In this document: positions 1 to 61,286 of the stretch, piece by piece
How positions within the stretch are numbered: position 1 is the stretch's first letter
Layout: every line of letters begins with the position of its first letter
Assembly (NCBI GenBank): GCA_043813075.1
Contig: JBDRLL010000003.1
Span: forward strand, 96,001 to 160,000
DNA length: 64,000 nucleotides
Source of the DNA: Candidatus Altiarchaeota archaeon
GTDB lineage: Archaea > Altiarchaeota > Altiarchaeia > IMC4 > SCGC-AAA252-I15
Direction: 5' to 3'
The notes under the pieces: generated by a model
Databases searched by the model: none
What the model was told of the DNA's origin: nothing
Seen by the model: only the letters and a program-made list of their open reading frames with translations
Position numbers and translations under genes: made by a program

Positions 1-1204
1 CCTTACAGACGTATGACATGTGATCCCAGTAATCCAGGTCTGTTATGCCGACTTTCCCTTCCTCAAGGAATTCGTCCATAAGCCTGCCGTGGGGGGTGAA
101 CTTCTGGTAGACCACCATGCTGGGATTCACTTCGTCCATGAAGTCTGTCTTCTCGACTATCGAATCCATTGATTCCAGGGGAGAGCCGACTATCATGGAG
201 GCTATGACAAACACCCCGTTTTCAATCAGTATTGAGAACACCTCCTTGACTCGCAAGGCATCGTATCTCTTGCCGTAGTATCCCATTATCTCCTCGTTAA
301 CGTCCTCAATGCCGAAGAGTATGGCCTTCACCCCAGCCTCGCGAGCTAGGGGTATCAGGTCAGGGTGGCTTATGAACGTGTCGACCCTCGCCTGGATGCT
401 CGCGTTGATATCCAGCTTCCGCTCTGAAATGAGTTGCAGCAGCCGCCTGGTCTTGGAGACGTCGCCGAAGAAGTTGTCGTCAGCGAACATCAGGTTTTTC
501 ACACCCATGCTCCGGGCATAGTATTCGATGTCTTCAGCCATGCGTTCGGGACTCCTTGTCCTGTATGGTGTGAAGAAGTCTTTTGAGGAGCAGAACAGGC
601 ATTTGTGGGGGCACCCCCGGGACCAGTCGACCAGTAGGAATGGTTTTTCACACCATACGAAGTCGTAGTCATTGACGTCTATCAGCCTGAAGTCCGGGCG
701 GGGCAGGTCATCCAAGTCAACCGTATCCTGTCTCCCAGAGTATCTGACCGCGCCGTCCTCCAGATAGTAGACCCCCTTAACCAGGGAGACTGGCTTGCCT
801 GAATCGATCGAGTCCACGAGGCTCTTGAAGACAAAGTCTCCCTCGCCGGAGACTATGTAGTCCATAACCCGGCCCTTGAGTAGTGATTCGAAGTCCCGGT
901 CCCTGAAGAAGATGTAGCTGCCTCCTGCGACAATAACCATGGTGTCGTCGAGCTCACGCAACTCCCTTAAGAGCTTTAGTGATTTAGTGTATGAAACGGT
1001 GTGAAGCAGGCTTATGCCCAGCACCTGAGGCTTGAACTCCCTCACCGCGTCGAACAGGATGCTGTCACCGCAAGCAGTCAAGTCTATAAGACGCACTTCA
1101 TGGTCAGGCTCAAGGATTGCGGCGATATACAGCAACCCTAGGGGCATCGCATTACCCAGAACTGATTCGACGTTAGAGTCGGGATTGACAAGTAAAACCC
1201 TCAT
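1..1204 (-). CDS. Cobalamin (B12)-binding domain radical SAM protein, 3' end outside the window
   Basis: Not in ORF track; read manually from ATG at 1204: MRVLLVNPDSNVESVLGNAMPLGLLYIAAIL (B12-binding N-terminus), then DWSRGCPHKCLFC (CxxxCxxC). Confidence 0.9.
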   Translation of the reverse strand, partial: MRVLLVNPDSNVESVLGNAMPLGLLYIAAILEPDHEVRLIDLTACGDSILFDAVREFKPQVLGISLLHTVSYTKSLKLLRELRELDDTMVIVAGGSYIFFRDRDFESLLKGRVMDYIVSGEGDFVFKSLVDSIDSGKPVSLVKGVYYLEDGAVRYSGRQDTVDLDDLPRPDFRLIDVNDYDFVWCEKPFLLVDWSRGCPHKCLFCSSKDFFTPYRTRSPERMAEDIEYYARSMGVKNLMFADDNFFGDVSKTRRLLQLISERKLDINASIQARVDTFISHPDLIPLAREAGVKAILFGIEDVNEEIMGYYGKRYDALRVKEVFSILIENGVFVIASMIVGSPLESMDSIVEKTDFMDEVNPSMVVYQKFTPHGRLMDEFLEEGKVGITDLDYWDHMSYVCK

Positions 1205-1216
1205 CCTGGATAACAA

Positions 1217-2692
1217 TTATACTTTATCAAGGTATAAGCGCCTGGCCGCCCCCCATAATCTCCATTCCACAGGATGGTTGAAGTACCTCCGCCGCCACCT
1301 GGCTTCAGCTGAAATATTGAAGAGGTAGTGGAATACATCGTATGCAGCCACCATAAGACTGCTTCCCCCAAGCCACGCCTTCTTCACCTCCGGACCCCTG
1401 GAGGCCAGCCGCTCATGGAAGTGGGTGAAGCGGACTATGTTTGATATCGTATCCAACTGGGACTGGGCTTCCATGCTCATCCAGGGGAGACGCACGGAGT
1501 CGAACCTCCATCCACCCCATTCTTCCAGGGAACCATGCACCATCATGCCCTGGGAGACCGCGGTTTCATGGATGGGCGTGCCAGGCTGGGGTATGAGCAT
1601 CCATAGGTTACATACCTCCGTCCTAGGGTTCAGCCTCCTGAGCTCGTCCACCAGGCTGAGGGTCTTGGACAGGTCTCCTGGAGTCTCATCAGGCCAGCCG
1701 ATGATGAAGCTCACCATTGGCGTTATCCCATAGTCCCCGCACTTTCGGACAGAATCAGTTATCTGGCTGACTGTGATACCCTTCCCAATCCCGTCAAGTA
1801 TCCTCTGGGAGCCTGACTCAGCGCCGAAAAACAGCGTCTCGCATCCGCTATCCCCCAGGAGTCTGGTGAACTCATCATCGTATCCGGAGAAATAGTCAGC
1901 CCTATTATAGGCCATCCACTTCACGTCCCACCCCTCCCGTATTATCGCCGAGCAGATGCTCCGCATCCTCTCCTTGTCGACAAAGGAGTTGTCCTCCTGG
2001 AAGGTTATGCTGTTTGCGCCGACTTCTTCTATTATGTTCCTTAGCTCCTCCACCACAACCTCGGGTTTCTTCGCCCTCCAGCCGCCCTTGCTGTAGCAGT
2101 GGTTAAAGCAGAACGTGCAGTTGTGGGGGCATCCCCTGCTGGACTGGTAGGAGAAGTATTCCCTGCAGTCGATGTATTTACGCAAGTCCACCAGATCGTA
2201 GTGGAGGCTGCCTATGGCGTTCATGTCCGTGAAACCCCTCGGTGGGGTTGAGACGACAACCCCGTCTTTCTTGAATGCGATTCCGTTGACATCCTTTAGC
2301 GGACCCTCATCCCTGACAGTGTTGGCAAGCTCTATGATGGTTTCCTCGCCGTCACCACTGACGGCGATGTCGACGAGACTGCTGGCCGCAGTCTGCTCCG
2401 GCAGCATCGTGGCGTGGGGCCCGCCCCATACTATCGGGATGTTTGGGTCTTCCTCGCGTATCATGCCTGCGACAGCGAGGCCGTGGCTTATCTGCGGCCC
2501 TGTCATGGATGTTATGCCTGCCAGAAGATACTCGCCGTCGAGATGCTTGAGGTCTTGAATCCGTGTGTCCACGATTTTCGGGTCGTAACCAGCATTCCGG
2601 AGGACTGTTCCAAGGTTTAGGAGCGGGAGCGGCATGTAGGGCGCCCTCTCTTTTTTTCCAGGGTATATCAGGAGTATTTTATCTGTCGCCAT
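1217..2692 (-). CDS. Cobalamin-binding domain radical SAM protein
   Basis: Likely start MATDKILLIYP at 2692; PLPLLNL, WGGPHAT, GDGEET, SSRGCPHNCTFC, FFGAESGS motifs. Confidence 0.92.
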   Translation of the reverse strand: MATDKILLIYPGKKERAPYMPLPLLNLGTVLRNAGYDPKIVDTRIQDLKHLDGEYLLAGITSMTGPQISHGLAVAGMIREEDPNIPIVWGGPHATMLPEQTAASSLVDIAVSGDGEETIIELANTVRDEGPLKDVNGIAFKKDGVVVSTPPRGFTDMNAIGSLHYDLVDLRKYIDCREYFSYQSSRGCPHNCTFCFNHCYSKGGWRAKKPEVVVEELRNIIEEVGANSITFQEDNSFVDKERMRSICSAIIREGWDVKWMAYNRADYFSGYDDEFTRLLGDSGCETLFFGAESGSQRILDGIGKGITVSQITDSVRKCGDYGITPMVSFIIGWPDETPGDLSKTLSLVDELRRLNPRTEVCNLWMLIPQPGTPIHETAVSQGMMVHGSLEEWGGWRFDSVRLPWMSMEAQSQLDTISNIVRFTHFHERLASRGPEVKKAWLGGSSLMVAAYDVFHYLFNISAEARWRRRYFNHPVEWRLWGAARRLYLDKV

Positions 2693-2732
2693 GCTTAATG
2701 TTTGATGATTATTACAAGAGTACCATATAAAG

Positions 2733-4073
2733 ATGGAGTTGGGGAAAAGCAGGAGCCTCTGTCCCATATGCCTGAAGGAGATTGACGCGAGCATAATCCA
2801 GGATGATGGGAGGGTGTTCATCTCTAGGGAGTGCGCTGCGCATGGATTGTTTGTTGACCCACACCTCTACGAGGATCCGGTCATATACAAGGCGCTCTCC
2901 AACATGGACTGCGGCGGGGATGACGTCCTACCGGACACTCTAGTGTTCCACACTACACCAGCATGCAACATGGACTGCCAGTTCTGCCCTATACCAGGCG
3001 AGATGAGGTCTGGTGAAGGCCCTGAGATAGGTGAGATTATGGATGAGGTCTCCAGATTCCATGGGTCTACCATATTCCTGTGCGGGGGAGAGCCGACCAT
3101 AAGGGGGGATTTGCCGGAGATAGTCGGGAAAATCTCAGGTGCAGGGAAGAATGTGCTGGTCTTCACCAACGGACTGAGACTAGCGGACAGGAAAAACGTG
3201 GATTCCCTCAAGGCCACAGGCCTGACCCAGGTCATACTCTCGTTCAGCACGTTTCAAGAGGAGAAGGACATTAAAGTCTACGGCTCCCGCGTCACTTCAT
3301 TGAAGCTGAAGGCCTTGGAGAACCTGAAGGCCACGCTGACCCCGACCGGCTTCTCATTCCTAGTATTCAAGGACATTAACGAAGACGAGGTGGATAAGGT
3401 GATCGGATACGCGGTAGACAACCGGGAGTGGGTCAAGAGCATATGCTTTCAGGTGGTCTGGAGGCCTTCCGAAAGGGACTCCAGCATGGTGAAGCAGAAG
3501 GGGATAATAGACCTTGTGCGAAAATCCGCTGGAATTGATGTTGAAGACTTCATAGAATGCACTGTCTTCGGCAGCACTGTGTCTGAGATTTTCAGGAGGA
3601 TTACGGGCAGGGGTGGGCGCGTGTATTCCAGGTGCGAGCTAAGATGCCAGTCATGGGTGTCAGATGGACGACTTGTGCCATTATCCGGGATGATTGATTT
3701 GAAGACTGTGAACGAATCGCTACGGAGAATTAACAGCCGCCTCAAGGGGTCAGCAGCCCGGAAGATTGGTGTGATGATCTTGTTTTTCCCTTACACAGAA
3801 TTATTGAAGTCGTTCATATTCAACAGGGACTTCAGAAACTTCTGCCTTAGCAGGTTTTCAGGCATGCTCTCAGGTATAGTGCACGGCAGGATGTTCCGCG
3901 AGTCGTTGGGGAAGGACATGCTCGGATTCATGGTGGGGAGATATTATACCAGGTACAACATCGACTTGGGGTTGGCGGATACTTGCAGGTACTGCAGGTC
4001 TCCTGAGGGAAACGACATCTCATACTGCATATGCGATATGATAGGGTGGACTGAGAACAAGCAGACTGCTTGA
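2733..4073 (+). CDS. Radical SAM protein, divergent tetraether lipid synthase (Tes/MJ0619)-like paralog 1
   Basis: N-terminal SLCPIC...ECAAHG metal site, CNMDCQFC, GGEPTIRGDLP, C-terminal YNID...C...SYC region. Confidence 0.8.
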   Translation: MELGKSRSLCPICLKEIDASIIQDDGRVFISRECAAHGLFVDPHLYEDPVIYKALSNMDCGGDDVLPDTLVFHTTPACNMDCQFCPIPGEMRSGEGPEIGEIMDEVSRFHGSTIFLCGGEPTIRGDLPEIVGKISGAGKNVLVFTNGLRLADRKNVDSLKATGLTQVILSFSTFQEEKDIKVYGSRVTSLKLKALENLKATLTPTGFSFLVFKDINEDEVDKVIGYAVDNREWVKSICFQVVWRPSERDSSMVKQKGIIDLVRKSAGIDVEDFIECTVFGSTVSEIFRRITGRGGRVYSRCELRCQSWVSDGRLVPLSGMIDLKTVNESLRRINSRLKGSAARKIGVMILFFPYTELLKSFIFNRDFRNFCLSRFSGMLSGIVHGRMFRESLGKDMLGFMVGRYYTRYNIDLGLADTCRYCRSPEGNDISYCICDMIGWTENKQTA

Positions 4074-4095
4074 TGAGCCGCTTGGTCCTGGTGAG

Positions 4096-5433
4096 TCATG
4101 GATTATCTGATTCCCGCGACCGGAACACTTCCCTAAGGCAGAACGGAACGACTCTATCTCCCTCAAAGCCTCCGAGACTGCAGCAGGACATGAATTCATA
4201 ATCCACGTTTGACGCGTCAAAATACCTGTTAGCTATTATACTGCACACCTGAGGCAGCATCATTGTTATCGGATGGTCATTTTCCGCAATGATCTTCCAT
4301 AATCCGGATGCGCTCGGCAGCATGAACAATATTGCGCGCGCGTCTCTGACGCTAGAGAGGAATGCGAGGATAGTCTTCACTAGGGCGCCTGCTTTCCCTG
4401 CTTTTCCATTGAAGTCTGTGCTAACGCTTATCTTGGATAGCCTTTCTGAGAGTGCCTGCATGTCCAGCAGATGGTTTAAAGGCGTTAGAGAATCCCCCAT
4501 ACGGACTAGGTATAGCCGTAGGTAGCATGCTGAAACCCGCCTACCACCCCTCCCAGACATCTTTCGCATAAGCTGGCTGAAGCAGAAGCCGAACCTGGTG
4601 CACTCGAGGAAGTCTTCCAAGCAGGTTCCCAGATGCATGCATACCAGATCAGCGGACTTGCTTGCAGGCACTGAACGCCCCGCGTCATTCCCATTTGGAT
4701 TCCAGTAGGATGAGAAAGCTAAACCCCTTATCCTACCCCTATGACGCCTCAAAAGTTCTATGAAGCCTGGAACCTGGTCCTCGTTTACGCCGTCCCGTAG
4801 GACAACATTCAGGAAGACTGGTATGTCTAGTTGAAGTAGGTTTTTTAACGCCCCCATCTTCTTCCCGACCACTTCCTCGCCGTATAGCCGGATGCCCTGA
4901 CCAGCATCCAGTGTGTCCAATGAGAGCACTATCAGTGGCTTGTTTCTTGAGAATGAACTGGCATAATCCATGCTGCCCAGCCTAATCCCGTTGGTGAAGA
5001 ATGAGGGATGATATCCCATAGACCTTAATTCACCTATTATCCCCGGCAGGTCGTCGCGCATGGTAGGCTCCCCGCCGAACAAGTATATTATGGAGCCGCC
5101 GAACCCAGCGGCAGTGGAGACTAATTCTTCCAGAGATATCGGATGTTCTTCCACCATGCCTTGAGGCTTAAAGCAGTCTGGGCAGTTCATGTTGCATAAT
5201 CCGGTGACATCCAGAAAAGCAGTGTCCGGAGACCATTCACCGTCTTCAGGGTCGATGGCCAGGAGTGACTTCATTGACGCGTAGACTTGCTTGTCTTGGA
5301 AAACGTGCGGGCTCACTGAAGTGCCATGCTCCGGGCATTCCTGCCTTATGAACATTCTCCCGCCATCCTCGAAGACCGTTGCATCAACATCCCTCAAGCA
5401 CTTCGGACAGATGCTCCGTGAATTTGATTCCAA
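4096..5433 (-). CDS. Radical SAM protein, divergent Tes-like paralog 2 (TTG start)
   Basis: SICPKC...ECPEHG, CNMNCPDC, GGEPTMRDDLP, RYFDASNVD...CC...VVPFC. Confidence 0.8.
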   Translation of the reverse strand: MESNSRSICPKCLRDVDATVFEDGGRMFIRQECPEHGTSVSPHVFQDKQVYASMKSLLAIDPEDGEWSPDTAFLDVTGLCNMNCPDCFKPQGMVEEHPISLEELVSTAAGFGGSIIYLFGGEPTMRDDLPGIIGELRSMGYHPSFFTNGIRLGSMDYASSFSRNKPLIVLSLDTLDAGQGIRLYGEEVVGKKMGALKNLLQLDIPVFLNVVLRDGVNEDQVPGFIELLRRHRGRIRGLAFSSYWNPNGNDAGRSVPASKSADLVCMHLGTCLEDFLECTRFGFCFSQLMRKMSGRGGRRVSACYLRLYLVRMGDSLTPLNHLLDMQALSERLSKISVSTDFNGKAGKAGALVKTILAFLSSVRDARAILFMLPSASGLWKIIAENDHPITMMLPQVCSIIANRYFDASNVDYEFMSCCSLGGFEGDRVVPFCLREVFRSRESDNP

Positions 5434-5545
5434 AAAAACCCCTCAAACACAGATTATGAGACAGGCAAGATATATTATTGTTAAGTTCTGATATTCAATA
5501 ATATCAAGGGTGTACGCTAGTGCAAAGAATTTCCGAATGGTTTGA

Positions 5546-7210
5546 ATGAAAATCAGGTTGAGCTGCTTTAATCCGTTCTCATATAGCATAACCCCCCTCG
5601 GACTGGGATACAAAAACGCTTCCCACAACAACGCTGGACACGACTCTATGATACGCCTTTTTGAACGGGAGGAGTCAGCGTTCTACGACACACTGCTGTC
5701 GATGGACTTTCTTGGGAAGAGATTCCCGCTAATATCGATACCAGAATACATACAACAGATCGAACTGGTGGAGAATGAAGTTTTCGCAGAGGAGCTCGGC
5801 TTCATAGACAGGGGGGAGATGAACTACAGGTCCAGATTCCCCTCTGAAACAGAGAGGCTGGTTGGGATATGCGACTCCATAGCGGACAGCCTGTCAGGCA
5901 ACAGTATGGTGGGATTCAACATAACGTCAATAGCCATGGGACCGACACTATACATCTCGAAGGCAATTAGGGAGAGGGATGATGGCGTGAAGATAGTGTA
6001 TGGGGGGCCGATAACAGACATGATGGCTGGAGTTTTAGACCCCATAAACGCCATGCACAAGTCCATCAACGAGTCAATGAGGAGTAGCGGCATATACGGG
6101 AGGTACGCTGATTTTCTGGCTGGGAACGTCGACTTCCTGGTTCACGGTGAGGGTGAGGAGACTATTGTGGAAATTGCTAATGCGATTGATGATGGAGGTG
6201 ACGCGGAGATACCGGGGACTACCGCCATCAGGGAGGGGTCTTTCAAGAGGAGTCGCCCTAGGAGGCCTGTTGACTTGGATGGGATATGCCGTCCAGACTT
6301 TGATGGCATAGACATGAGGACGTACGGGTATGTCACGTTCAACTTCTCCAGGGGTTGTATTAACGCGTGCACGTTCTGTGACGAGTGCCTGTTCTTCAAG
6401 GGCTACAGAGTCAGGGATCCGGCAAAGGTTTTGGAGGAGTTGAGCGCCGGCTCAGAGAGATATCCTGGTAAAAGGTTTCTCGCGTGCGACAGCCTGCTGA
6501 ACGGAGACCCTGCGAGGCTGAAGGAGCTCTGCAGGCTGATTACTGAGTCAGGGCTGCGTATAGACTGGAGCGGATACCTGCGGCTGCCTGAGACGGACGA
6601 GGAACTAGTAGACCTGCTCTATGAGTCCGGTTTCAGGAGGCCGAAATTCGGTTTAGAGACCATCGACGATGGGGTCTATGAGGAGGTTGGCAAGCGGCAG
6701 GAGACCGGTCACGCGCTTAGGATCATGGACTACTGCAGGAGGAAGGGCATGAAGGTGACCGCGAACTTCATGATCGGGTATCCGGGGAGGGGAATGGACT
6801 TCGAGCTGGAGGTGATGGATAGGGTTAAGGGCATACGAGGGCACTATGATTACATGCCGCTTGAATCGATAAACGTGGGTATAAGGTCGAGTGTCGCGAG
6901 CGACCCTGAGAGGTGGGGTTTCGAGATAAAAAGCACCCATGAATTCAGTGAGAGTGACTGGGAGTATTATACACTGGCAAGGTCGTATATCCCGGGAATC
7001 ATAACGTACACGAGGAATTCGCTGTCACGAAGCGAGGCTGAGAGGATATTCGAGGAATACAACAGGCACGGTCTTCTCAACAAGAGGGGGTTGGAGTATG
7101 GACTCCACAAGTATGGATTAGGATGGCTGAAAAAGTATAGGCGGTATATTCCGTTCAGCATATCCAACTGGCTTAAGCTCCAGTATCTTAAGGAGGAGAT
7201 AATCATTTGA
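5546..7210 (+). CDS. Cobalamin-binding domain radical SAM protein
   Basis: TPLGLGY, VYGGP, HGEGEET, FSRGCINACTFC, FGLET, NFMIGYP. Confidence 0.9.
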   Translation: MKIRLSCFNPFSYSITPLGLGYKNASHNNAGHDSMIRLFEREESAFYDTLLSMDFLGKRFPLISIPEYIQQIELVENEVFAEELGFIDRGEMNYRSRFPSETERLVGICDSIADSLSGNSMVGFNITSIAMGPTLYISKAIRERDDGVKIVYGGPITDMMAGVLDPINAMHKSINESMRSSGIYGRYADFLAGNVDFLVHGEGEETIVEIANAIDDGGDAEIPGTTAIREGSFKRSRPRRPVDLDGICRPDFDGIDMRTYGYVTFNFSRGCINACTFCDECLFFKGYRVRDPAKVLEELSAGSERYPGKRFLACDSLLNGDPARLKELCRLITESGLRIDWSGYLRLPETDEELVDLLYESGFRRPKFGLETIDDGVYEEVGKRQETGHALRIMDYCRRKGMKVTANFMIGYPGRGMDFELEVMDRVKGIRGHYDYMPLESINVGIRSSVASDPERWGFEIKSTHEFSESDWEYYTLARSYIPGIITYTRNSLSRSEAERIFEEYNRHGLLNKRGLEYGLHKYGLGWLKKYRRYIPFSISNWLKLQYLKEEIII

Positions 7211-7827
7211 CACATAGGGGAGAGCTTACCGGAGAATTGCCTGAACCCGACTGGGATGCGGTCTGGGGCAGGAATTTAGGCAAGAATCTGACGGTATTTA
7301 GGGTATACTCTGGGCTCAGGTTCAGAAGCTATAGAAGACTGTTCAGTGGACTGGACCTGGAGGGTAGGGGGGTGCTGGAGATAGGGGGTGGGACAGGACA
7401 GTTAGGCAGCATGCTTGGGAGGGAATTCAAGTGCAATGTAACACTGATAGACGATAGTGAAGAGGCTTTCAGATTCCACTCCAGATTCGGCATAAAAGGG
7501 GTGGATTATGTGAGGGGGGATGTCTTCAGGCATGAGGGAGTCTACCATCTAGTCTACAGTGACGGGCTTATAGAACACTACAGGGGCGCTAAGAGGGAGG
7601 ATCTGATACGGCGTCATTCCCTGTTATGCGGTGAGGGGGGTTACACCGCCTTTTTTGTGCCAAAAAAATCGTTTTTCGTTGACATGTTCCTCACACTCAG
7701 GGGCTATTACGAGGAGAAGTACGACGTGGATGGCATCACTTCAGAGCTGGAGGAGAATGGCCTTGAGGTCCTCAAGACTGTGGAGGATTTCCATATGATA
7801 GGTGTGTTATGCGAGCAGAGGGGATAG
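7207..7827 (+). CDS. Class I SAM-dependent methyltransferase
   Basis: VLEIGGGTG motif I; SDGLIEHY; overlaps the genes on both sides. Confidence 0.85.
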   Translation: MTHRGELTGELPEPDWDAVWGRNLGKNLTVFRVYSGLRFRSYRRLFSGLDLEGRGVLEIGGGTGQLGSMLGREFKCNVTLIDDSEEAFRFHSRFGIKGVDYVRGDVFRHEGVYHLVYSDGLIEHYRGAKREDLIRRHSLLCGEGGYTAFFVPKKSFFVDMFLTLRGYYEEKYDVDGITSELEENGLEVLKTVEDFHMIGVLCEQRG

Positions 7828-9164
7828 CCTTTGAGGCAAGGACTAGGAGCCTCTGCCCAGTTTGCCTCAAGCAGGTGGACGCGAGCGTAAGGATTATTGA
7901 GGGTAAGGTCAGCATCAGCAAGGAATGCGACAAGCATGGCTCCTTCGAGTCGCCGCATTTTTGGGGTGATGAAGTGCTTTATCACGCGATGAAGAGGATA
8001 GCGGACATGTGTGATGACGGGGTACCCCCGGACAACCTCGGGTTGTATCTCACACAGAAGTGCGATTTGAGTTGCAGCTACTGTTATCTGAAGGATAATG
8101 AGGAGGGGATGGAAGAGCCGAGCATAAGCGATGTCTTAGATTATGTGTCCGGATTTAAGGGGTCGACTGTCATACTAAGCGGGGGGGAGCCGACACTCAG
8201 GGACGACCTGCCTGAGATAATCAAGGTGGTGCGGGAGAGAGGATACATGATTGTGCTCGCGACAAATGGCATGAGGCTTTCGAGAGAATACGTGGAAGAC
8301 CTGAAGTCATGCGGTTTGGGCATGGTGATGCTGTCTTTCACGACCTTTAAGGAGGAATACTCAGAGAGACTGCAGGGCATCAACACTGTCGAGGCTAAGA
8401 GAAGCGCTGTAAGAAACCTTAATGACGCATGCATCCCATTGTTCCTCTACATTCCTGTTTTGAGGGGGGTGAACGACAGTGAGATAGGCGCATTCATAGA
8501 TTACGCCAAATCCGTGAATGCGGTGAGGGCGGTTGACTTCAATGTGACAACACACCCAGGAGGATTCTCAGACAAGCTGACGCTCACACAGAAGGAGATT
8601 ATCGACGTGATAGGAGAGCATACTGGCGTTGGCGTTGAGGACTTTACGGACTGCACGTTATCCGTGCACCTTGCATCAGAGGCATTAAGGAAGGTATTAG
8701 GTGGTGGGAGGAGGAGTTCAGGATGTTATCTGAGACTATACTTCCTCAGGTCAGGGGAGGTCTTAAGTCCAGTGAGCGGGATTCTGGACTTGAAGTATGT
8801 TAACATGAGGCTTCTATCAGCCAACGCTATCCTTGACTCGAAATCACCGCTCAGGAGAATCAAGGCGTTGAGCATCATCGCGGGATTGTTCCTATCAACC
8901 GCTTGGCGGAATCAGGAGGGGATGATGCTTTGTTCAAGTGTTGTCAGAAGCATTGCCTCCAGGAGAGGTGGCTCGTCTGCTGGCGGCGGATTACTATGCA
9001 TTAATGTTATGCGATTCAACGACCGCTTCAACGCTGACCTTGGTTTCACTCGGGCATGCTGCTCGCACAGCATCAGGAATGCTTCAGAGAAGCCAATGTG
9101 CGCGTGCATTAGGGAAATGTATTTCTGCAGGCCGCCTGTCTTTAAGAAAAGGAATCTAAAGTAG
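7809..9164 (+). CDS. Radical SAM protein, divergent Tes-like paralog 3
   Basis: RSLCPVC...ECDKHG, CDLSCSYC, GGEPTLRDDLP, MRFNDRFNAD...CC.H. Confidence 0.8.
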   Translation: MRAEGIAFEARTRSLCPVCLKQVDASVRIIEGKVSISKECDKHGSFESPHFWGDEVLYHAMKRIADMCDDGVPPDNLGLYLTQKCDLSCSYCYLKDNEEGMEEPSISDVLDYVSGFKGSTVILSGGEPTLRDDLPEIIKVVRERGYMIVLATNGMRLSREYVEDLKSCGLGMVMLSFTTFKEEYSERLQGINTVEAKRSAVRNLNDACIPLFLYIPVLRGVNDSEIGAFIDYAKSVNAVRAVDFNVTTHPGGFSDKLTLTQKEIIDVIGEHTGVGVEDFTDCTLSVHLASEALRKVLGGGRRSSGCYLRLYFLRSGEVLSPVSGILDLKYVNMRLLSANAILDSKSPLRRIKALSIIAGLFLSTAWRNQEGMMLCSSVVRSIASRRGGSSAGGGLLCINVMRFNDRFNADLGFTRACCSHSIRNASEKPMCACIREMYFCRPPVFKKRNLK

Positions 9165-9170
9165 TGTATA

Positions 9171-11351
9171 ATGCAATTCTGGCGTGGGGGTATTGCAAGG
9201 GACTTGCTGTTCCTGGTCTGCCTTTCTGCGGTTATACTAGTCATCGGAGCATCCAGCATAAGGGAGAAGTCTCCAGTATGGGACGAACCATATTATGTTG
9301 GAGCGGGATACTACATGCTCAGACAGTGGGATAAACCGTGGATAAACTATACCAGCCTAGTTCCCATAATAACGCACCCCCCGCTACCGTATTACGTCAA
9401 CAGCATACCGTTCTACATATACGACTTGATTGGCGACTTCTCGGATGGAGGATTGTTTGATACAAATGAGAGCGAACTAGTCACGTATCCGCCACCAAGC
9501 GTGGATGAGATATTGGATTTGAAGAGGGATTATCCTGAAAAATTCGGGCAGAGATTCATATACTCTGACGAATACGAGGAGTACGACCTCCTGTTCTACT
9601 CGAGGTGCTCGATGCTACTATTGCTGATACTATGCAGCACATACATGTTCGTGATTGCCAAGAGATACTACGGTTTCGAGACGGCCTGCGTGATAACCGC
9701 TTTATTCTCGCTAAACCCGAGCATACTCGCACACGCCAGGCTGGCGACAACCGATATCGCTCCGGCATGCTTTAATCTCATATCATTCTACTACTTCACG
9801 CTTTTCATGGAGAGGAAGAGTCTGACGAGGGGTCTTGCTGTAGGCATAACACTCGGACTGGCCTTGCTCAGCAAGGAATCCAGCACCTACCTGCTGGCAC
9901 TATATTCCGCAATAGTATTCATCCGACTAGTGTCATGGTTTGTGTCGAGGGTCGTGCATGTAGTAAAGACTTGTTGTGGTCTTATGAGTGATAAAAACAG
10001 AATGTCCGAGTCCATCGCGTCGATGCTAACTTGGAGTAGGTTTAGGGGGAGCCTCCCGCTCTTAGGGCTCATAACGCTCATCTCACTGACAGGTGTTTCA
10101 GTATACCATGGCGGGGAAAAAAGCACTATAGTATACGTTGTGGTGATAACGCTTTTCATGATCTTCTACTCTGAGGGGAGGAAGAGGGCTTTCATTGGTT
10201 TTGTCAGATGGTTTTTCCGGCTTTTGAGGTCGCTGACACCATACGCGATGATTGTTGTTTTAGCGACAACCACATTGAATGCGGGGTACTTGTTCACGGA
10301 GATAAACTACGACTGGCTCGAGAACTGGGGGGGTATCCTGCTAAAGGACGTCCGCTTCTCGCAAGACGAGATGATGGATAGGAGCATTAGGGGTTATGCC
10401 CTTGGCTTGAGACTGCCTGTGTCAGACTACTACCTCTACACTATAATGAATACGCGAGTTCATATGAGGGTCGGGCACCCAAGCTACATAAAGGATGTTA
10501 TAATCTCTAGTAGGGAGGTGGGCGAGATGAAACCCGGATTCGTGGAGGACGAGATGCTGAAGATAAGGGAGGGTGTTAGTGTGAAGAAGAGGATGGACTA
10601 CTGGGTGACGCTATTCCTGATAAAAGCCCCTGAAGGGCTTCTGATACTGCTGCTCTTCTCGATATTCTACTTCTTCTCAAACCAATTCAAGAGGGGGATA
10701 GTCAACGATAAGTTGACATGGTTCAGGACGTGCCTTGTGCTGAACATAATCACGGCCTGCATGATGATTCTCGCATCAACCATACTGATTGGCGTAAGAC
10801 TTGTGTTATTCATATTTCCGCTATTGTATCTACTACTAGCGGAGCCGATGAAGGCTCTGCTGTCTGGCGGCAGAACCTCCAGGAGACTAGCATACATCAT
10901 CATAGCATTATCGGTACTCCCAGCTGTCATATACCACCCGCACTACATCCCCTACTTCAATCAGTTGGTTGGCGGCCCGGAAAACGGATACACTTACGCT
11001 TCAGACTCGAATGTTGACTGGGGTCAGGATTTGCCTGGCCTGAAGGAGTATATGGACGAGAAAGGCATTGACGAGATTAAACTGGCATACTTCGGGACCG
11101 CGAGGATAGATGAGTATGGGATAGAGTATTTTTCACTGCCAAACAACCAGGGGATAGAGATGTTCTCTGGGCAGCGGAGTCCTGACGTGGAGTGCGGCCC
11201 TGTTGAGGGCATACTCGCAGTCAGCGCGACAAGCCTGACAGGGCAGTTCGGAGACCCCGGATGCTATGAGTGGCTTAGAGGCTACGAACCGATGGACAAC
11301 ATAGGATATTCCATACTAGTCTATAACATCACCAATGCAACAGCAGGCTAG
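9171..11351 (+). CDS. GT-C fold lipid-carrier-dependent glycosyltransferase (ArnT/PMT family)
   Basis: WDEPYY, HPPL, NPSILAHARLATTD, LALLSK, YFNQLVGG, DSNVDWGQDL motifs; many TM segments. Confidence 0.88.
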   Translation: MQFWRGGIARDLLFLVCLSAVILVIGASSIREKSPVWDEPYYVGAGYYMLRQWDKPWINYTSLVPIITHPPLPYYVNSIPFYIYDLIGDFSDGGLFDTNESELVTYPPPSVDEILDLKRDYPEKFGQRFIYSDEYEEYDLLFYSRCSMLLLLILCSTYMFVIAKRYYGFETACVITALFSLNPSILAHARLATTDIAPACFNLISFYYFTLFMERKSLTRGLAVGITLGLALLSKESSTYLLALYSAIVFIRLVSWFVSRVVHVVKTCCGLMSDKNRMSESIASMLTWSRFRGSLPLLGLITLISLTGVSVYHGGEKSTIVYVVVITLFMIFYSEGRKRAFIGFVRWFFRLLRSLTPYAMIVVLATTTLNAGYLFTEINYDWLENWGGILLKDVRFSQDEMMDRSIRGYALGLRLPVSDYYLYTIMNTRVHMRVGHPSYIKDVIISSREVGEMKPGFVEDEMLKIREGVSVKKRMDYWVTLFLIKAPEGLLILLLFSIFYFFSNQFKRGIVNDKLTWFRTCLVLNIITACMMILASTILIGVRLVLFIFPLLYLLLAEPMKALLSGGRTSRRLAYIIIALSVLPAVIYHPHYIPYFNQLVGGPENGYTYASDSNVDWGQDLPGLKEYMDEKGIDEIKLAYFGTARIDEYGIEYFSLPNNQGIEMFSGQRSPDVECGPVEGILAVSATSLTGQFGDPGCYEWLRGYEPMDNIGYSILVYNITNATAG

Positions 11352-11354
11352 CGG

Positions 11355-11645
11355 CTATGCTTTGGAAGGAGTGTTCTGGAATCTGCTCCAGTAGGCTAGG
11401 GCAGATACTGTCACCAAGATTATAACCAGGTAAGAGGTAAGTGAGGTTATGGCTATGCCAGCATTCTTGTTTATAAAGTATATTATAAGATGTGGTATCA
11501 CACCCAGTATGGCGCTTAATCCGATCCTCTCGACTATACTGACGTCATTGCGCTTAGGGAATATTGCGAGGGATAGGGCGTACCCAGGGACGAATATGAA
11601 CAAGAGGGAGATTATTGTGCCCCAGAATATGCTTTGACCGTCCAT
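11355..11645 (-). CDS. Small membrane protein (DUF1616-like)
   Basis: FVPGYALSLAIFP...ERIGLS motif; three TM helices. Confidence 0.75.
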   Translation of the reverse strand: MDGQSIFWGTIISLLFIFVPGYALSLAIFPKRNDVSIVERIGLSAILGVIPHLIIYFINKNAGIAITSLTSYLVIILVTVSALAYWSRFQNTPSKA

Positions 11646-11680
11646 CCTTTATTATTACACAACAAGCCCATAAAAAGCCT

Positions 11681-12766
11681 TTAAAGCATGTCTGCAATGA
11701 AGAAGGGCGAGTAGGCGAGGAATTTGACCGCGAACCGGGGGTTGAAGGCTAGGCTGCTGATAACCCTTGACGCATAGTCCATGTCGCCCCCACTCTCAAG
11801 ACTGCCCCTTACAGACTGGAGTAGGTCGAAGAGACGATCCAGACTCTTTGGTGAAAGCCCGGATAAGAAACGATGTATGAACAAGTGCATGAGAAGCTCG
11901 CGTCCGACCGCCCTCTTCCATTCGCGCTCGTATTGGTCGCTGAAAGCATATTCAGCAGCCAGACCGCCCATGACGATTCCGCCGCCGGTGGAAGCCTTCA
12001 CCTGCCCTCCAGCATCCCCCACAGTCACCAGACCATCGTACTGCGTCCTCATCGACGGCTTGTGTATGGGTATTATCCCGTAGTGCTCGTCGAACACCGT
12101 GTCTTTTCTGAGGCGGCCTTCATCACGCAGTTTTTTCACGAATGCCTCCATGTAGGGCCTTGGATTTCTCTTGGTGCAGAGTCCGATGCGAGCACGGTCC
12201 CCGATGGGTATGACCCATGCGAAGAAGTCAGGGACGGTGAAATACAATTCAGCGAAATCATTGTCGCATTCAACGTCCATCTCGTACTGCATTCCAATGA
12301 GGAATTCGCTCGGCTTTTCAATGCCCATTGTGATGTGGAGTGAGTAGTCCGTTCCGGTGGCGAGGGCTATTCGGTCGGCCTTTATCTTGGAGCCGTCACT
12401 GGTGGATATTGTGCCATTGACGTCAACCACGCGGCCGGTGGCCCGGACTGCTCCCGCATCAACTGCCTTGTTTAAGAGGTGGCCGTCAAAACCTATACGA
12501 TCCACCACACACGCCATCGTCTTGCCGCCATCAGCCTCGAACAGCACGCCCCCTGGAGAGTAGAACCTCGCGCCACGAATCCTGTTCAATATGAAATCCC
12601 CGTCACTAACGCCCAGTCTCTCAAGTCCAGACTTGCTTATCAGGCCCGCACACTGGACCCTGCAGACGTCGCCGCCTATCAGCGCGACATCCATTGACTT
12701 GGCGGCGTGCGTTGCTGCGATACAACCTACGGGGCCTGCACCCACCACAGCAGCGTCATATTTCAT
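11681..12766 (-). CDS. Geranylgeranyl reductase family FAD oxidoreductase
   Basis: GAGPVG, CAGLIS, DRIGFD, FAWVIP, VGDAGGQVKASTGGGI. Confidence 0.88.
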   Translation of the reverse strand: MKYDAAVVGAGPVGCIAATHAAKSMDVALIGGDVCRVQCAGLISKSGLERLGVSDGDFILNRIRGARFYSPGGVLFEADGGKTMACVVDRIGFDGHLLNKAVDAGAVRATGRVVDVNGTISTSDGSKIKADRIALATGTDYSLHITMGIEKPSEFLIGMQYEMDVECDNDFAELYFTVPDFFAWVIPIGDRARIGLCTKRNPRPYMEAFVKKLRDEGRLRKDTVFDEHYGIIPIHKPSMRTQYDGLVTVGDAGGQVKASTGGGIVMGGLAAEYAFSDQYEREWKRAVGRELLMHLFIHRFLSGLSPKSLDRLFDLLQSVRGSLESGGDMDYASRVISSLAFNPRFAVKFLAYSPFFIADML

Positions 12767-14618: not shown

Positions 14619-15197
14619 ATGCTGGATAAACGCGACTGCAGGGCCATTAAGGCCGATTTGGACAAGCTCAGCAGGGGTAAGATAGAGGTCATGAAGCAGT
14701 CGAGGGAGATTGTTAAGGCGTCTAAGGAGCTGATATACAGCATACACCGGGGGGACGTTAAGGGATCCCGTGCGCTTCTCGCCAACATCCGGAAGAAGAG
14801 GGGGGTGCTTGATAGGATAGCCTCAACCCCGAGGCTTAGGGCATACCATCCGTACATCAATGGCGTGCAGGAGTATGTTGAGGCTGTATCATACCACTAC
14901 GTGATGACTAGTGGGCATATTCCATCCCGGAAAGACCTTGACGTGGACAGCGAGACGTATCTGATGGGCCTGTCAGACCTGACGGGCGAGCTTATGAGGA
15001 AGGGTGTCGACGACATGGTGAATGAGAGATACGCGCATGCGATAATGATGAGGGATGCGGTGGCCGAGATTTACGGTCTCATGCTCAGTCTTGACCTGGA
15101 TGGTGGTGAGGCGCGGAGAAAGTCTGATGCGGTCAAGTGGAACCTGGCGAAGCTCGAGGATTTGGTGTACGATGCCAAGATAAGGGACAAGATATGA
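14619..15197 (+). CDS. Translin/Trax family protein (C3PO-like RNase)
   Basis: QEYVEA and YLMGLSDLTGELMR motifs, RRKSD near the C-terminus. Confidence 0.88.
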   Translation: MLDKRDCRAIKADLDKLSRGKIEVMKQSREIVKASKELIYSIHRGDVKGSRALLANIRKKRGVLDRIASTPRLRAYHPYINGVQEYVEAVSYHYVMTSGHIPSRKDLDVDSETYLMGLSDLTGELMRKGVDDMVNERYAHAIMMRDAVAEIYGLMLSLDLDGGEARRKSDAVKWNLAKLEDLVYDAKIRDKI

Positions 15198-15712
15198 TGG
15201 AAGACTTCAGGTATCATATGATGGCGGCTGCCGCGATTGCGGTGATACTTTTTCTCATAGGAGTGATGGTGGGGATGGGTTTGGGCTACTATGCCATCCC
15301 ATCGGTGATGGATAGGATTGACCCGACTACGACAACCACTACCAGCAGCACGACGACCACTACTACAAGCACAACGACCACGAGCACAACGACATCCACG
15401 ACTTCAACAACAACCACGACCATGGAGCCGTTCTACGTTTGCGCAGAGGAGTTGATGAGGGACGAGTTCGTTGAAACCGAATGCTACGGGAAGACTAGCG
15501 GAGAATACTACAACAGCTCGATGAAGTCCACAGTATGGTATGTGTTGAACAACACCGCTATCGGAGACCACGCCTCCAACAGGGTGAAGGTGGTGGAAGA
15601 CACCTGCTACTACACCCTCAAGAAGCTGAACTTCCAGGTTGGCGCGCTTTCCACATGCGTGATACCCCAGGAAAGGAACTGCACGCTGGACGCGGACCTC
15701 ATTACAGACTGA
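15194..15712 (+). CDS. Membrane-anchored Thr-rich surface protein
   Basis: N-terminal TM helix, ~32-residue poly-Thr/Ser linker, Cys-containing C-terminal domain; ATGA overlap with translin stop. Confidence 0.75.
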   Translation: MMEDFRYHMMAAAAIAVILFLIGVMVGMGLGYYAIPSVMDRIDPTTTTTTSSTTTTTTSTTTTSTTTSTTSTTTTTMEPFYVCAEELMRDEFVETECYGKTSGEYYNSSMKSTVWYVLNNTAIGDHASNRVKVVEDTCYYTLKKLNFQVGALSTCVIPQERNCTLDADLITD

Positions 15713-22226: not shown

Positions 22227-23501
22227 ATGAAAGTGGGTTACCTGCACCTAGGGCCCCCTAAACATGGCGTTTGCCGTTACGGGATGCTCCTCGCCGAGGA
22301 AGCCAAGACTAGGAGTGACTTGGAGGTGATGGAGGAGAGGATTATCCTGGGGGATGATTATGGGAAGAACCGGAGGATGCTTGCTAATGCGGGGAAGAGG
22401 CTTTCTGCCGCAGATGTCGTGCACATCCAGTACACGAGGTACCCTGACCTAGTGTGGGGTAAAGGTTTCGATCACGTCCGCAATATGCTGGTGTTCATGA
22501 TGCACTGCAGGACACTGGTGGTCACCACACTCCACGACGTCTATCTGAACGAGTATTTCACTCCCGGGATGGTACTGGGTTTTTACGCGAAATACTTCAA
22601 GGGGATGCTGTCAGGTATTTTCAATGGCAGGAGAAGGGAGACCAGTCTGAGGGAATTGTATCTGAAGGCAAGGCCCAGCCTCGGGTACCTGCTTGCCACT
22701 AAGATGATATCCTTCAAGTCAAGCCTGGTTCTAGTATGCTCTAGGGAGGAGAGGAAGAGGATAAAGAGCTTCGTGAAGATTAGAAAAATCAGGGTCATAA
22801 ACCATTTCGTGGAAAAAAGGGATCCCCACACGAAGTCCGACGCTGAGAAGGCAAAGAAAAAGCTCGGATTAGAAGGGCATCGGGTGATAACACTGCTAGG
22901 ATTCTTATGGGGTTCTAAGGGGCACAGGATGGTTGTAGAGTCAATCCCTCTTCTGCCAGAGGACGTGACCGTGGTTTTCGCTGGGGGGCCGGGCTTGAAA
23001 CAGGAGGAGACTGAGGACATAGTCTGGATGCTTACACTTTTGGCCAGGAGGCTTCGTGTCTCATCAAGACTTAGGATAACTGGTTATCTGCCGGATGACA
23101 AGCTCGAGGAGTACATTATCGCAACAGACCTGGCGGTATGCCCGTTCATAAACATGGCGAGCTCGGGATCCCTATCCACCTGGATTTCATACGCGCGGCC
23201 GATACTCGCATCCAGGCTCCCTCAGATGAGGGAGTATAACGCGATGGAGCCCGGTTCGATACGTTTTTTCGAACCATACAACAGCAGGGGGTTCGCGATA
23301 GCGGTTGACAGGGAATTGGAGACTTGCAGCCTGAAGGATGACGCTAGGGTGGCTGGGCTCAGGAGCAGGATGATCATCCCAGTCGCCTTCGACAAACACC
23401 TGGAATGCTTTAAACGCATCATAAAGCAGAATAATAGTAAAGAAAACCTAAGGGATACAGATGGATTACGACATAAAACGCTCGATAGAACACCTGCTTG
23501 A
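22227..23501 (+). CDS. Glycosyltransferase family 4
   Basis: HGVCRYG, DVVHIQY, TTLHD, GFLWGSKG, ASSGSL. Confidence 0.88.
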   Translation: MKVGYLHLGPPKHGVCRYGMLLAEEAKTRSDLEVMEERIILGDDYGKNRRMLANAGKRLSAADVVHIQYTRYPDLVWGKGFDHVRNMLVFMMHCRTLVVTTLHDVYLNEYFTPGMVLGFYAKYFKGMLSGIFNGRRRETSLRELYLKARPSLGYLLATKMISFKSSLVLVCSREERKRIKSFVKIRKIRVINHFVEKRDPHTKSDAEKAKKKLGLEGHRVITLLGFLWGSKGHRMVVESIPLLPEDVTVVFAGGPGLKQEETEDIVWMLTLLARRLRVSSRLRITGYLPDDKLEEYIIATDLAVCPFINMASSGSLSTWISYARPILASRLPQMREYNAMEPGSIRFFEPYNSRGFAIAVDRELETCSLKDDARVAGLRSRMIIPVAFDKHLECFKRIIKQNNSKENLRDTDGLRHKTLDRTPA

Positions 23502-24342
23502 GACCAACAACGTGAGGAGGAGCCTCTGGCACATGGACAACAAGGTTGAGGACCTGGTGTACGGCATACGCCAGGGAGACGACTCGGTTGTCGTTGGGGA
23601 CATGATATTCAACATGGAGGGCCCATACCCCCTCAAGACCGGGAGGAAGACAGGCCTCATACACACTTGCAGCGACATAGTGGTTATGGGCGGGAGGCCG
23701 TTGTTCGCATTCAACGCGATGCAGGTGGATTCCATGAAGGAGGCTGATGAGGTTATTGAAGACATCAAGAGGCAGTCGAACGGCCTGGGCGTGCCGATGG
23801 TCGGGGGCAACACACAGATGGAGAACGACCTCAAGCCCTGCGTCTCATTTGCAGTGGTTGGGAGGCTTGTCGGGGAGCCTATCGCCGATGCGGGATGCGT
23901 TGAGGGGGATAGTATGCTGATGCTAGGCGAGATTGTCGAGGGGGATATAGGGGAGAGGGTGTATAGGGCTAAGGTAAAGTATGAGACGTTCCTGGAGATG
24001 CTGGAGGAGAAGGTTGTGGTTCACGCGGCGAAGGATGCGAGCAGGGGAGGATGGTTCGGGAACATGGTCGAGATGCTTGTGAAAAGCAGGCGGGGCGTGA
24101 AGTTGAAGAGCATACCTTATCCGGAGGTATCAAGGTATATGGGCACTTTCCTCATCTCAGTGCCGGAGGTGGAAGTGGACCGTGTTGTGGAAATCGCGTC
24201 CAAGAGAAAGTGTCCTGTCGTCGAAGTCGGTGAGGTGCTGAAGGACACTCATGTTGTCATGGGCAGGAAGAAGCTTGTGAACAAGAAGAAGATGCAGGAA
24301 CTCATACGGGGCATACCCTACAAGAAGCCGAAAAAGGCTTGA
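23461..24342 (+). CDS. AIR synthase-related (PurM-like fold) protein
   Basis: GDDSVV, SDIVVMGGRP, VGGNT, AKDASRGG. Confidence 0.85.
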   Translation: MDYDIKRSIEHLLETNNVRRSLWHMDNKVEDLVYGIRQGDDSVVVGDMIFNMEGPYPLKTGRKTGLIHTCSDIVVMGGRPLFAFNAMQVDSMKEADEVIEDIKRQSNGLGVPMVGGNTQMENDLKPCVSFAVVGRLVGEPIADAGCVEGDSMLMLGEIVEGDIGERVYRAKVKYETFLEMLEEKVVVHAAKDASRGGWFGNMVEMLVKSRRGVKLKSIPYPEVSRYMGTFLISVPEVEVDRVVEIASKRKCPVVEVGEVLKDTHVVMGRKKLVNKKKMQELIRGIPYKKPKKA

Positions 24343-24369
24343 TGACAATCAACAACACCGGTTTTTCAA

Positions 24370-40240: not shown

Positions 40241-40283
40241 TAGATTCTTTTTTAGTCTTGTTCTTCCGCGTTCTATAAGAGAG

Positions 40284-58047: not shown

Positions 58048-58072
58048 GTTCTATTATCGCCTCCAACGCCTA

Positions 58073-61230: not shown

Positions 61231-61286
61231 GTTATTGATTAATATTCTATGGAAAAAAATGATGTATCTAAGCTTATGAGGGTGAA

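Follow-up and report, generated by a model that had tools for sequence, protein, structure and literature searches.

What does an archaeon make with six radical S-adenosylmethionine (SAM) enzymes encoded side by side, three of them of the cobalamin type and three resembling Tes, the tetraether synthase? The question is raised by the left end of a 64,000-nucleotide stretch of DNA from a Candidatus Altiarchaeota archaeon (contig JBDRLL010000003.1 of assembly GCA_043813075.1, positions 96,001 to 160,000), and "the window" denotes the whole of this stretch throughout. Within 9.2 kb lie three genes for cobalamin-type radical SAM enzymes (B12a, B12b, B12c) and three for Tes-like enzymes (TesL1-3), and beside them stand genes for a small methyltransferase (MT), a GT39/ArnT-type GT-C glycosyltransferase and a geranylgeranyl reductase (GGR) family protein. 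The comparisons presented below suggest that this accessory locus may encode an undescribed pathway tailoring isoprenoid chains, either those of membrane ether lipids or those of another polyprenyl-derived lipid, a reading that in our view stands about an even chance of being correct.

The three Tes-like proteins are encoded at 2733-4073 (TesL1, plus strand), 4096-5433 (TesL2, minus strand) and 7809-9164 (TesL3, plus strand). They are mutually 32-35% identical (E 1e-62 to 1e-74), and each of them combines the Pfam domains Zn_ribbon_HMPTM (50-51 bits) and Radical_SAM, with 51 and 63.5 bits, respectively, in TesL1. A preliminary description of this DNA had called them Tes-like, which holds for their family and fold. 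By sequence, residues 5-422 of TesL3 match the glycerol dialkyl glycerol tetraether (GDGT) enzyme GDGT-MAS (PDB 7tol) with an E value of 5.5e-40. The AF2 model of TesL3 (predicted local distance difference test, pLDDT, 84; predicted template modelling score, pTM, 0.86) has 7tol as its sole full-length match in Foldseek, with template modelling (TM) scores of 0.80 for the query (TMq) and 0.74 for the target (TMt) and E 3e-29, and the next fold (E 3e-9, TM 0.39) covers the radical SAM core only. As 7tol is the only structure matched over the full length, at a TM score of 0.80, the TesL3 fold, including its C-terminal domain, is taken to be that of the lipid enzyme. Identity with Tes itself did not hold. 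On the Tes equivalog model NF045702 (cutoff 450 bits) TesL1, TesL2 and TesL3 reach only 127.7, 103.7 and 158.3 bits, and on the TrsS model NF045646 (cutoff 490 bits) 116.2, 117.1 and 166 bits. TesL and TrsS have in common the superfamily and the N-terminal zinc ribbon, and TesL proteins score similarly on the Tes and TrsS models; unlike TesL, however, the TrsS sequences form a clade of their own (support 100) and keep the N-terminal cluster site described below. In the literature searched, TrsS was found only as one table row (PMC13188914), and in two further papers mention of bacterial Tes homologues was found in general terms only (PMC13159169; PMC13459092).

The metal sites tell the two groups apart. 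A review (PMC13459092) assigns four of them to Tes: a rubredoxin-like iron (three Cys and one His), an N-terminal [4Fe-4S] cluster liganded by three Cys and one His, the SAM cluster, and a C-terminal [4Fe-4S] cluster with three Cys and one Met as ligands, which captures the substrate radical. The putative ligand residues were located from the text of that review in an alignment of 84 rows, which also underlies the tree discussed below. The rubredoxin-like Cys/Cys/Cys/His site is retained in TesL1-3, the radical SAM motif CX3CX2C is invariant in all rows, TesL1-3 included, and the three Cys of the C-terminal cluster are retained in all TesL proteins. The Cys/Cys/Cys/His columns of the N-terminal site, occupied in 38-41 of the 41 Tes rows and in 30-31 of the 31 TrsS rows, are absent from all 12 low-scoring rows, among them TesL1-3, whereas the Cys of the remaining three sites are retained there; a deletion of about 20 residues takes out the CX3CX2CX2H motif of the N-terminal [4Fe-4S] cluster in TesL. 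A check independent of the alignment, made on the linker from the His of the rubredoxin site to the first Cys of the SAM cluster, gave the same picture. In the cluster-less branch this linker has a median length of 40 residues, with three or more Cys in none of 132 rows, against a median of 62 residues in Tes (at least three Cys in 38 of 41 rows) and 61 in TrsS (31 of 31 rows). The TesL1 linker has one Cys and no CX3CX2CX2H motif, and that of TesL2 has no Cys. TesL proteins therefore share with the Tes/GDGT-MAS of M. jannaschii (PDB 7TOL/7TOM) the four-part fold, the rubredoxin-like site, the CX3CX2C motif and the three C-terminal Cys, but differ from it in being three paralogues rather than one gene. 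TesL1-3 are not Tes: they score below the cutoffs, fall outside the Tes clade and lack the N-terminal cluster.

The same separation is seen in the phylogeny, where the preliminary description had proposed to compare these proteins with Tes references. Among the matches listed in a word-index search with TesL3, three closer relatives were found, namely P0002 (56% identity), P0003 (34%) and P0004 (30%). One scan of genome contigs kept at least 79 loci, and 81 proteins from them, together with P0002-4, were scored against NCBIfam. The Tes cutoff was passed by 41 of the locus proteins, with one more at 444.8 bits, and the TrsS cutoff by 28, with three just under it. A third group scored low on both models; it consists of two copies from a Candidatus Omnitrophota locus (L001), the proteins from loci L004, L009, L041 and L050, and P0002-4. 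In the IQ-TREE tree of 84 rows, from which the partial open reading frames (ORFs) of L012, L051 and L058 and two radical SAM ORFs of L001 outside the family were left out, and which carried long-branch warnings, TesL1-3 form a clade with P0002 and P0003 (support 97), and the addition of the two Omnitrophota copies gives a clade with support 98. Tes and TrsS each lie on one side of a branch in this tree, and the TesL clade lies outside both; in a FastTree tree of 217 rows, TesL1-3 likewise fall outside the Tes clade.

The additional rows of the larger tree came from an exhaustive profile search of 1.84e9 representatives, which gave 1,104 hits at E <= 1e-30. The best 150 of these 1,104 yielded 148 new identifiers, and 15 proteins shorter than 380 residues were dropped. 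The N-terminal site is absent from 126 of the resulting 133 new representatives at 50% identity and present in seven. In the 217-row tree, again with long-branch warnings, the 133 rows without the site make up one side of a branch with support 96, and TesL1-3 fall within a nine-row clade with support 99. Every paralogue has its own orthologue elsewhere, TesL2 in P0297 (60% identity), TesL3 in P0002 (56%) and TesL1 in P0293/P0003, which indicates that the triplication is older than the splits between these species. As a lead, the nearest clusters in the ESM Atlas are unnamed, have 93-94 members and are mostly bacterial, Candidatus Omnitrophota being the commonest phylum. Judged by these sequences, the cluster-less branch of the Tes superfamily is large and uncharacterised.

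The Tes-like genes are interleaved with those of the cobalamin-type enzymes. B12a (2-1216, minus strand), a cobalamin-type (class B) radical SAM enzyme, is visible over 405 residues, starting at TTG 1216 or ATG 1204, with its 3' end beyond the window. The gene immediately upstream of it is that of B12b (1217-2692, minus strand), also of the cobalamin type, which has 491 residues from a Met at 2692; the ORF itself spans 1217-2821, and the start at Met-44 (2692) agrees with the usual N-terminus of the family. B12c (5546-7210, plus strand) is probably cobalamin-type in its architecture, and its N-terminal domain is divergent and contains an insert. All three had been described as B12-binding radical SAM genes. 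For B12a (B12-binding 52.8 bits, Radical_SAM 66.3) and B12b (43.2 and 72.6 bits) this agrees with Pfam, both scoring above the B12-binding cutoff of 32.1 and belonging to class B. With B12c the Radical_SAM domain is clear (57.5 bits), but the B12-binding domain stays under the cutoff (16.1 against 32.1), and the two relatives of this protein reach 31.6 and 29.6 bits. A model of B12c, of low confidence (pLDDT 53), has as its 15 best PDB matches only proteins of cobalamin-type radical SAM architecture, the best being TsrM, MgmA, OxsB, CysS and TokK at a TM score of about 0.43. These low-confidence fold matches, taken together with class B hits in NCBIfam, point to a cobalamin-type character of B12c, as a lead. 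Among 5.8e9 proteins B12c has two close relatives, P0122 (53% identity, named Candidatus Altiarchaeales) and P0123 (45%).

Identity among the three B12 enzymes is 24-28%, and none passes any NCBIfam equivalog cutoff. The best NCBIfam match of B12a is BchE, whose score of 161 bits is so far under the cutoff of 481 that B12a belongs to no known equivalog; its best PDB match is TokK (E 5.8e-12). B12b likewise passes no NCBIfam cutoff and is matched best in the PDB by 9ccb, MgmA (E 1.1e-15). A complex prediction for TesL1 with B12b scored 0.00 against a mark of 0.32, a result that has no bearing either way on binding.

Is the pairing of the two enzyme types peculiar to this archaeon? A B12-binding radical SAM gene, verified with Pfam, occurs in all five fetched loci of the cluster-less branch (L001, L004, L009, L041 and L050), which span four bacterial phyla. 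In four of them it adjoins the Tes-like gene, and in L050 it lies within two genes of it. By blastp, such neighbours were found at none of the 42 fetched Tes loci and at two of the 30 TrsS loci; both of the latter are under the Pfam cutoff, L030 having no B12 domain and L035 scoring 27.1 against 32.1. A B12 radical SAM neighbour thus accompanies the cluster-less branch always (5/5) and canonical Tes never (0/42 loci), and the B12 pairing is supported as a recurring property of the cluster-less Tes-like branch. In two loci from Thermodesulfobacteriota metagenome-assembled genomes (MAGs), L041:1-2009 and L004:4921-8374, a B12 radical SAM gene and a Tes-like gene diverge just as they do in the window.

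With these data, ordinary GDGT biosynthesis can be weighed as an explanation; with TesL acting as redundant tetraether synthases and the B12 enzymes as GDGT ring synthases, the pathway would be a known one. The family and fold of TesL are those of Tes, and one study (PMC13003381) reports that the lipids of Altiarchaeota comprise glycosidic archaeol, extended archaeol, GDGT-0 and extended tetraethers that are a new find, and that one canonical tes serves their synthesis. Nevertheless, we consider this explanation highly improbable. TesL1-3 score 104-158 bits where Tes needs 450, branch outside the Tes clade and are devoid of the N-terminal cluster site, and a genome of the same group, that of an Altiarchaeales archaeon (L076), has a canonical Tes of 635 bits. 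The B12 enzymes are under all NCBIfam equivalog cutoffs, no B12 radical SAM gene was found next to canonical Tes (0 of 42 loci), and grsA and grsB are reported absent from a Ca. Altiarchaeum metagenome in that study (PMC13003381).

If not tetraether synthesis of the known kind, what substrate could the pair act on? A UbiA prenyltransferase gene is found in three of the five branch loci (L001, L009 and L050), and L009 additionally encodes U32 proteins, a polyprenyl synthetase and a fusion of squalene-hopene cyclase with MacB/FtsX. An isoprenoid substrate is favoured because these bacterial cousin loci carry UbiA, polyprenyl synthetase and squalene-hopene cyclase genes.

The L009 cluster (L009:2899-20658), from a Bacillota MAG (JAEZRV010000031.1), lies on one strand and includes a Tes-like enzyme without a zinc ribbon. 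Its first half reads polyprenyl synthetase, radical SAM, class I MT, Glycos_transf_3, U32, B12 radical SAM and Tes-like, and then follow UbiA, a second B12 radical SAM, the squalene-hopene cyclase-MacB/FtsX fusion, an ABC ATPase, a second U32 and a PEMT/UbiE-like MT. It looks like the pathway of an undescribed isoprenoid product. The L001 cluster (L001:2483-15810), from a Candidatus Omnitrophota MAG (JAHJGZ010000199.1), comprises 12 genes on one strand and runs off the end of the fetched sequence. Ten of the 12 encode radical SAM enzymes, listed as five with no additional domain (SPASM being present in one of them), two of the B12 type and two tandem Tes-like ones; the genes of other kinds encode a class I MT and UbiA.

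The product could also be a prenylated small molecule, quinone-like or cofactor-like, rather than a membrane lipid. The L009 and L004 loci, which join UbiA, U32, UbiE/PEMT-like MT and Glycos_transf_3 genes with Tes-like and B12 genes, would suit such a product. The cluster in the window, however, has no UbiA, U32 or aromatic-precursor gene, and the GT-C would better suit a product at the membrane face, so that we regard a small molecule as unlikely here. This explanation also overlaps with the one we prefer, isoprenoid chain chemistry being common to both.

A different substrate would be a ribosomal peptide or a surface protein, modified by B12 C-methylases and Tes-like enzymes and O-glycosylated by the PMT-type GT-C. 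Such maturation would fit the NCBIfam matches of the B12 enzymes to C-methyltransferases of ribosomally synthesised and post-translationally modified peptides (RiPPs), with rSAM_ocin_1 at 88-108 bits and ApyD at 147 bits, all under cutoff, as well as the name of the Pfam GT-C family, which derives from protein mannosyltransferase, and the SPASM-type radical SAM genes in L001 and L050. Yet no free small ORF, nor intergenic room for a precursor-peptide gene, is present in the visible cluster, although such a gene could lie past the window edge. The Tes-like fold, C-terminal domain included, matches the lipid enzyme only, and the cousin loci carry UbiA, polyprenyl synthetase and squalene-hopene cyclase genes, not peptidases or leader-binding proteins. 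Peptide or protein maturation therefore appears decidedly unlikely, and we continue with the tailoring of isoprenoid chains.

The layout of the cluster, taken from the ORF map with the Pfam and NCBIfam scans, bears on whether its genes work together. B12b and TesL1 diverge from an AT-rich intergenic region of 40 bp (2693-2732), TesL1 and TesL2 converge with a gap of 22 bp, and TesL2 and B12c diverge from a region of 112 bp (5434-5545). B12c is the first of a string of four genes on the plus strand, followed by the MT gene (7207-7827), which overlaps it by 4 bp, by TesL3, which overlaps the MT gene by 19 bp, and, after 6 bp, by the GT-C gene (9171-11351), which closes the string. Across the whole cluster the intergenic gaps are 40, 22, 112, 6, 3 and 35 bp. 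The genes of the preliminary description all lie at or near the positions it gave, and it was right about both divergent B12/Tes-like gaps, about a tight operon at 5546-11351 and about a cluster extending beyond the window; since the 3' end of B12a runs off the left edge, the cluster continues to the left. The remainder of the window, 52 kb long, contains no further radical SAM paralogue of either kind, which argues that the cluster is more than chance.

The base composition of the cluster is like that of the rest of the window (tetranucleotide correlation 0.72-0.86, against 0.68-0.89 for other chunks; similar GC content at third codon positions), and judged by this measure the cluster genes are resident in the host genome. 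Recent horizontal transfer of the cluster was considered and rejected on the same composition. Scans with bacterial consensus sequences, applied here to an archaeal host, gave 11 promoter-type sites against 12.3 expected and nine terminator-type sites against 9.7 expected.

The MT is a class I SAM-dependent methyltransferase-like protein of 206 residues. Its Pfam matches stay just below the cutoffs (Methyltransf_25, 26.6 against 27; Methyltransf_11, 19.9 against 21.2), and it carries a GxGxG motif (LEIGGGTG) and matches PDB 3dtn (E 6.4e-6). It is 29% identical to the class I MT of L009 (E 5.7e-17), and between B12c and the radical SAM gene upstream of that MT no homology was found beyond the cluster motif.

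The GT-C, a GT39/PMT_2/ArnT-type protein of 726 residues, had been assigned to the ArnT/PMT type, and the Pfam cutoffs of both PMT (41.2 bits; cutoff 22.7) and PMT_2 (38.2 bits; cutoff 26.1) are indeed passed. No sequence match was found for it in the PDB. In the ESM Atlas its features agree at 0.99 with PMT_2 clusters, and its structure matches GT39/ArnT clusters at TM scores of 0.71-0.90. A WDEPYY sequence is present in it; a DE motif after the first membrane helix is, as we take it, typical of ArnT/PMT. The GT-C is thus like ArnT/PMT (GT39/GT83) in its PMT and PMT_2 domains and in its structure, but unlike these enzymes it is encoded in an operon with radical SAM enzymes, an arrangement seen in none of the 79 fetched loci.

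The GGR-family flavoprotein (11681-12766, minus strand) passes the family model TIGR02032 (164.3 bits against 158.8) and matches PDB 3oz2 (E 3.9e-15). It does not pass the equivalogs for digeranylgeranylglycerophospholipid reductase (NF041160, 60.3 against 780 bits; NF041080, 44.2 against 580 bits), and by these scores it would be a paralogue, not the canonical lipid reductase. Its gene overlaps the upstream ORF by 4 bp. The presence of a GGR gene had thus been correctly noted, yet it belongs to a separate transcription string with purA on the opposite strand, and its link to the cluster is weak. In Candidatus Altiarchaeales ex4484_2 (L076:7160-11479) a canonical Tes of 635 bits is encoded about 1.7 kb from a GGR-family gene, whose product is 27% identical to the GGR-family protein of the window. 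Between the GT-C and GGR-family genes lies a DUF1616-like membrane ORF of 96 residues (11355-11645, minus strand; 32.7 bits against a Pfam cutoff of 31.6), which matches the N-terminal part of the profile (positions 29-120 of 307) and whose membership of the cluster is uncertain.

How might such a set of enzymes act? In Tes/GDGT-MAS, according to the review, two sp3 carbons are joined by radical C(sp3)-C(sp3) coupling while the C-terminal cluster retains the radical (PMC13459092), and the same would be expected of TesL. By this analogy TesL would abstract a hydrogen from an unactivated sp3 carbon, the radical would be parked on the C-terminal cluster, and a C-C bond to a second chain carbon would follow. 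The three B12-type enzymes could then methylate, cyclise or desaturate the same chains, reactions already described for Ted, Gmm, Grs and the GDGT methylases. The polar part of the product may be decorated by the MT and the GT-C, the latter probably acting at the outer face of the membrane with a sugar from a polyprenyl-phosphate. The roles suggested for the MT, the GT-C and the GGR-family gene, as well as the substrate and the chemistry, are inferences drawn from homology and from the gene neighbourhoods in bacteria.

Several observations weigh against the tailoring of isoprenoid chains. For every member of the cluster-less branch the activity is a predicted one. TesL proteins are only 23-25% identical to characterised Tes, and the Met ligand of the C-terminal cluster is found only in TesL3 and P0002, being replaced by Gly, Asn or Ala in the others. 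The Altiarchaeales host of P0122 is absent among the 120 TesL3 matches listed, so that co-occurrence of B12c and TesL3 in relatives is a supposition. The tree of B12 radical SAM enzymes (24 rows) is star-like, and no orthology can therefore be read between those of the window and those of the bacterial clusters; RiPP methylases are among the top NCBIfam matches of the B12 enzymes. GT-Cs of the PMT family are familiar above all as protein O-mannosyltransferases. On the opposite strand, the GGR-family gene is part of a string in which purA, a coiled-coil ORF and GGR run in one direction. The MT of the window has no detectable homology to that of L001, homologues of the GT-C were found in none of the 79 fetched loci and of the MT in one, and the full gene set accordingly does not recur. 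Of the synteny that had been expected, the B12/Tes-like pairing was found again (5/5 loci), and the set with methyltransferase and GT-C was not. Finally, the cluster in the window includes no prenyltransferase, polyprenyl synthase or ether-lipid gene. The preliminary description had suggested an undescribed tailoring pathway; the isoprenoid genes of the cousin loci and the lack of a published description agree with it, and the missing lipid-synthesis gene does not. No published description was found, in a search to which supplementary files did not belong, of Tes-like enzymes without the N-terminal cluster or of their B12 partners.

Some of these points would also suit chance neighbours, or a tandem duplication with no shared pathway, since the B12 paralogues are only 24-28% identical with a star-like tree, and the MT, GT-C and GGR genes are no recurrent part of related loci. 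Such an origin seems scarcely probable at all: a segment of 9.2 kb contains six radical SAM genes and the 52 kb beyond it contain no more of these two kinds, adjacent genes overlap or follow closely on one another, B12 and Tes-like genes keep company in 5/5 loci of four bacterial phyla, and every TesL paralogue has a separate orthologue elsewhere.

Elsewhere in the window there are genes for archaeal PCNA, class I LysRS, FtsZ, Spt5, the L11-L1-L10 ribosomal proteins and SRP54, as well as folate genes; the GC content of the window is about 0.49-0.55, and no tRNA gene was found in it. The SRP54 (55408-56721) shares 65-81% identity with proteins bearing the name Candidatus Altiarchaeota or Altiarchaeales, and among the 120 matches listed only two of those with a name were called otherwise, in agreement with an Altiarchaeota host. 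Genes of folate-type one-carbon metabolism, PurN, dihydropteroate synthase and FolC, lie at 60619-63999, and since they are present, the archaeon appears to use folates. A pterin methylase role for the Tes-like proteins, hinted at by the HMPTM of the Pfam name, was considered and rejected, in a window that also encodes folate genes. An older, pterin-type annotation of MJ0619 has reportedly been superseded by the work on GDGT-MAS. The surroundings of the cluster are rich in glycosyltransferase genes, with a GT1-type gene, an sll0787-like gene related to aminoimidazole ribonucleotide (AIR) synthase and an AglG-like GT2 gene at 22227-25596, and two PgaC/NodC-like GT2 genes around a 226-residue ORF without a known family at 56776-59991. 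At 50313-52497 the genes of the nickel-pincer cofactor, larC (with the C1 and C2 parts fused) and larB, flank an overlapping tetratricopeptide repeat (TPR) ORF. A 272-residue ORF at 42720-43538 matches only the C-terminal part of the archaeal RqcH (model positions 381-643 of 645; 330.9 bits against a cutoff of 400), and the 735-residue ORF upstream of it (40197-42404) has only helix-turn-helix (HTH) matches; the RqcH-like ORF may be a split or truncated gene. The 191-residue ORF at 15137-15712 overlaps the end of a translin-family gene, has only low-complexity matches of mucin or glue type under the cutoffs, and may not be a real gene.

To our knowledge, few enzymes that modify archaeal membrane lipids have been described, namely Tes, Grs, Gms, Gmm, the GDGT methylases, Ted and Hgs, and we know of several natural lipid structures still without an assigned enzyme. 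A parallel to the cluster is offered by Gms and Gmm. According to one paper the genes gms, for a C-C cross-linker, and gmm, for a B12 methylase, often cluster in archaea (PMC11214058), and another credits B12 radical SAM enzymes with methylating, cyclising or desaturating the tails of GDGTs (bioRxiv 10.1101/2025.10.20.683597). The cluster in the window would likewise set a radical SAM C-C bond former beside a cobalamin radical SAM enzyme, both acting on the same isoprenoid chain. The likeness does not extend to the proteins: Gms belongs to the SPASM/Twitch enzymes and, as stated in the review, has no rubredoxin domain (PMC13459092), whereas TesL has the rubredoxin-like site, and the B12 enzymes of the window pass no family cutoff.

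A broader reading is possible, though we hold it to be doubtful, in which TesL-type proteins form a new class of radical C-C coupling enzymes that obligately work with dedicated cobalamin partners and make cross-linked, methylated isoprenoid lipids not seen before. Such a class would be common to Altiarchaeota and to bacteria, mostly Omnitrophota; each of the three paralogues would install a different link, and the GT-C would then glycosylate the product at the outer face. Should this be true, they might account for some of the tetraether variants of subsurface sediments that still await assignment.

An unnamed branch of the Tes superfamily is revealed by these comparisons, one that has lost one iron-sulfur cluster, has B12 radical SAM neighbours and counts at least 126 representatives at 50% identity. 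The candidates can be tested in hosts that are already in use, T. kodakarensis and a tes-overexpressing M. acetivorans (bioRxiv 10.1101/2025.10.20.683597). Should isoprenoid chains be what the branch acts on in bacteria, Omnitrophota for example, this would bear on the source assignment of sedimentary lipid biomarkers, as well as on Tes-type chemistry carried out without the N-terminal cluster.

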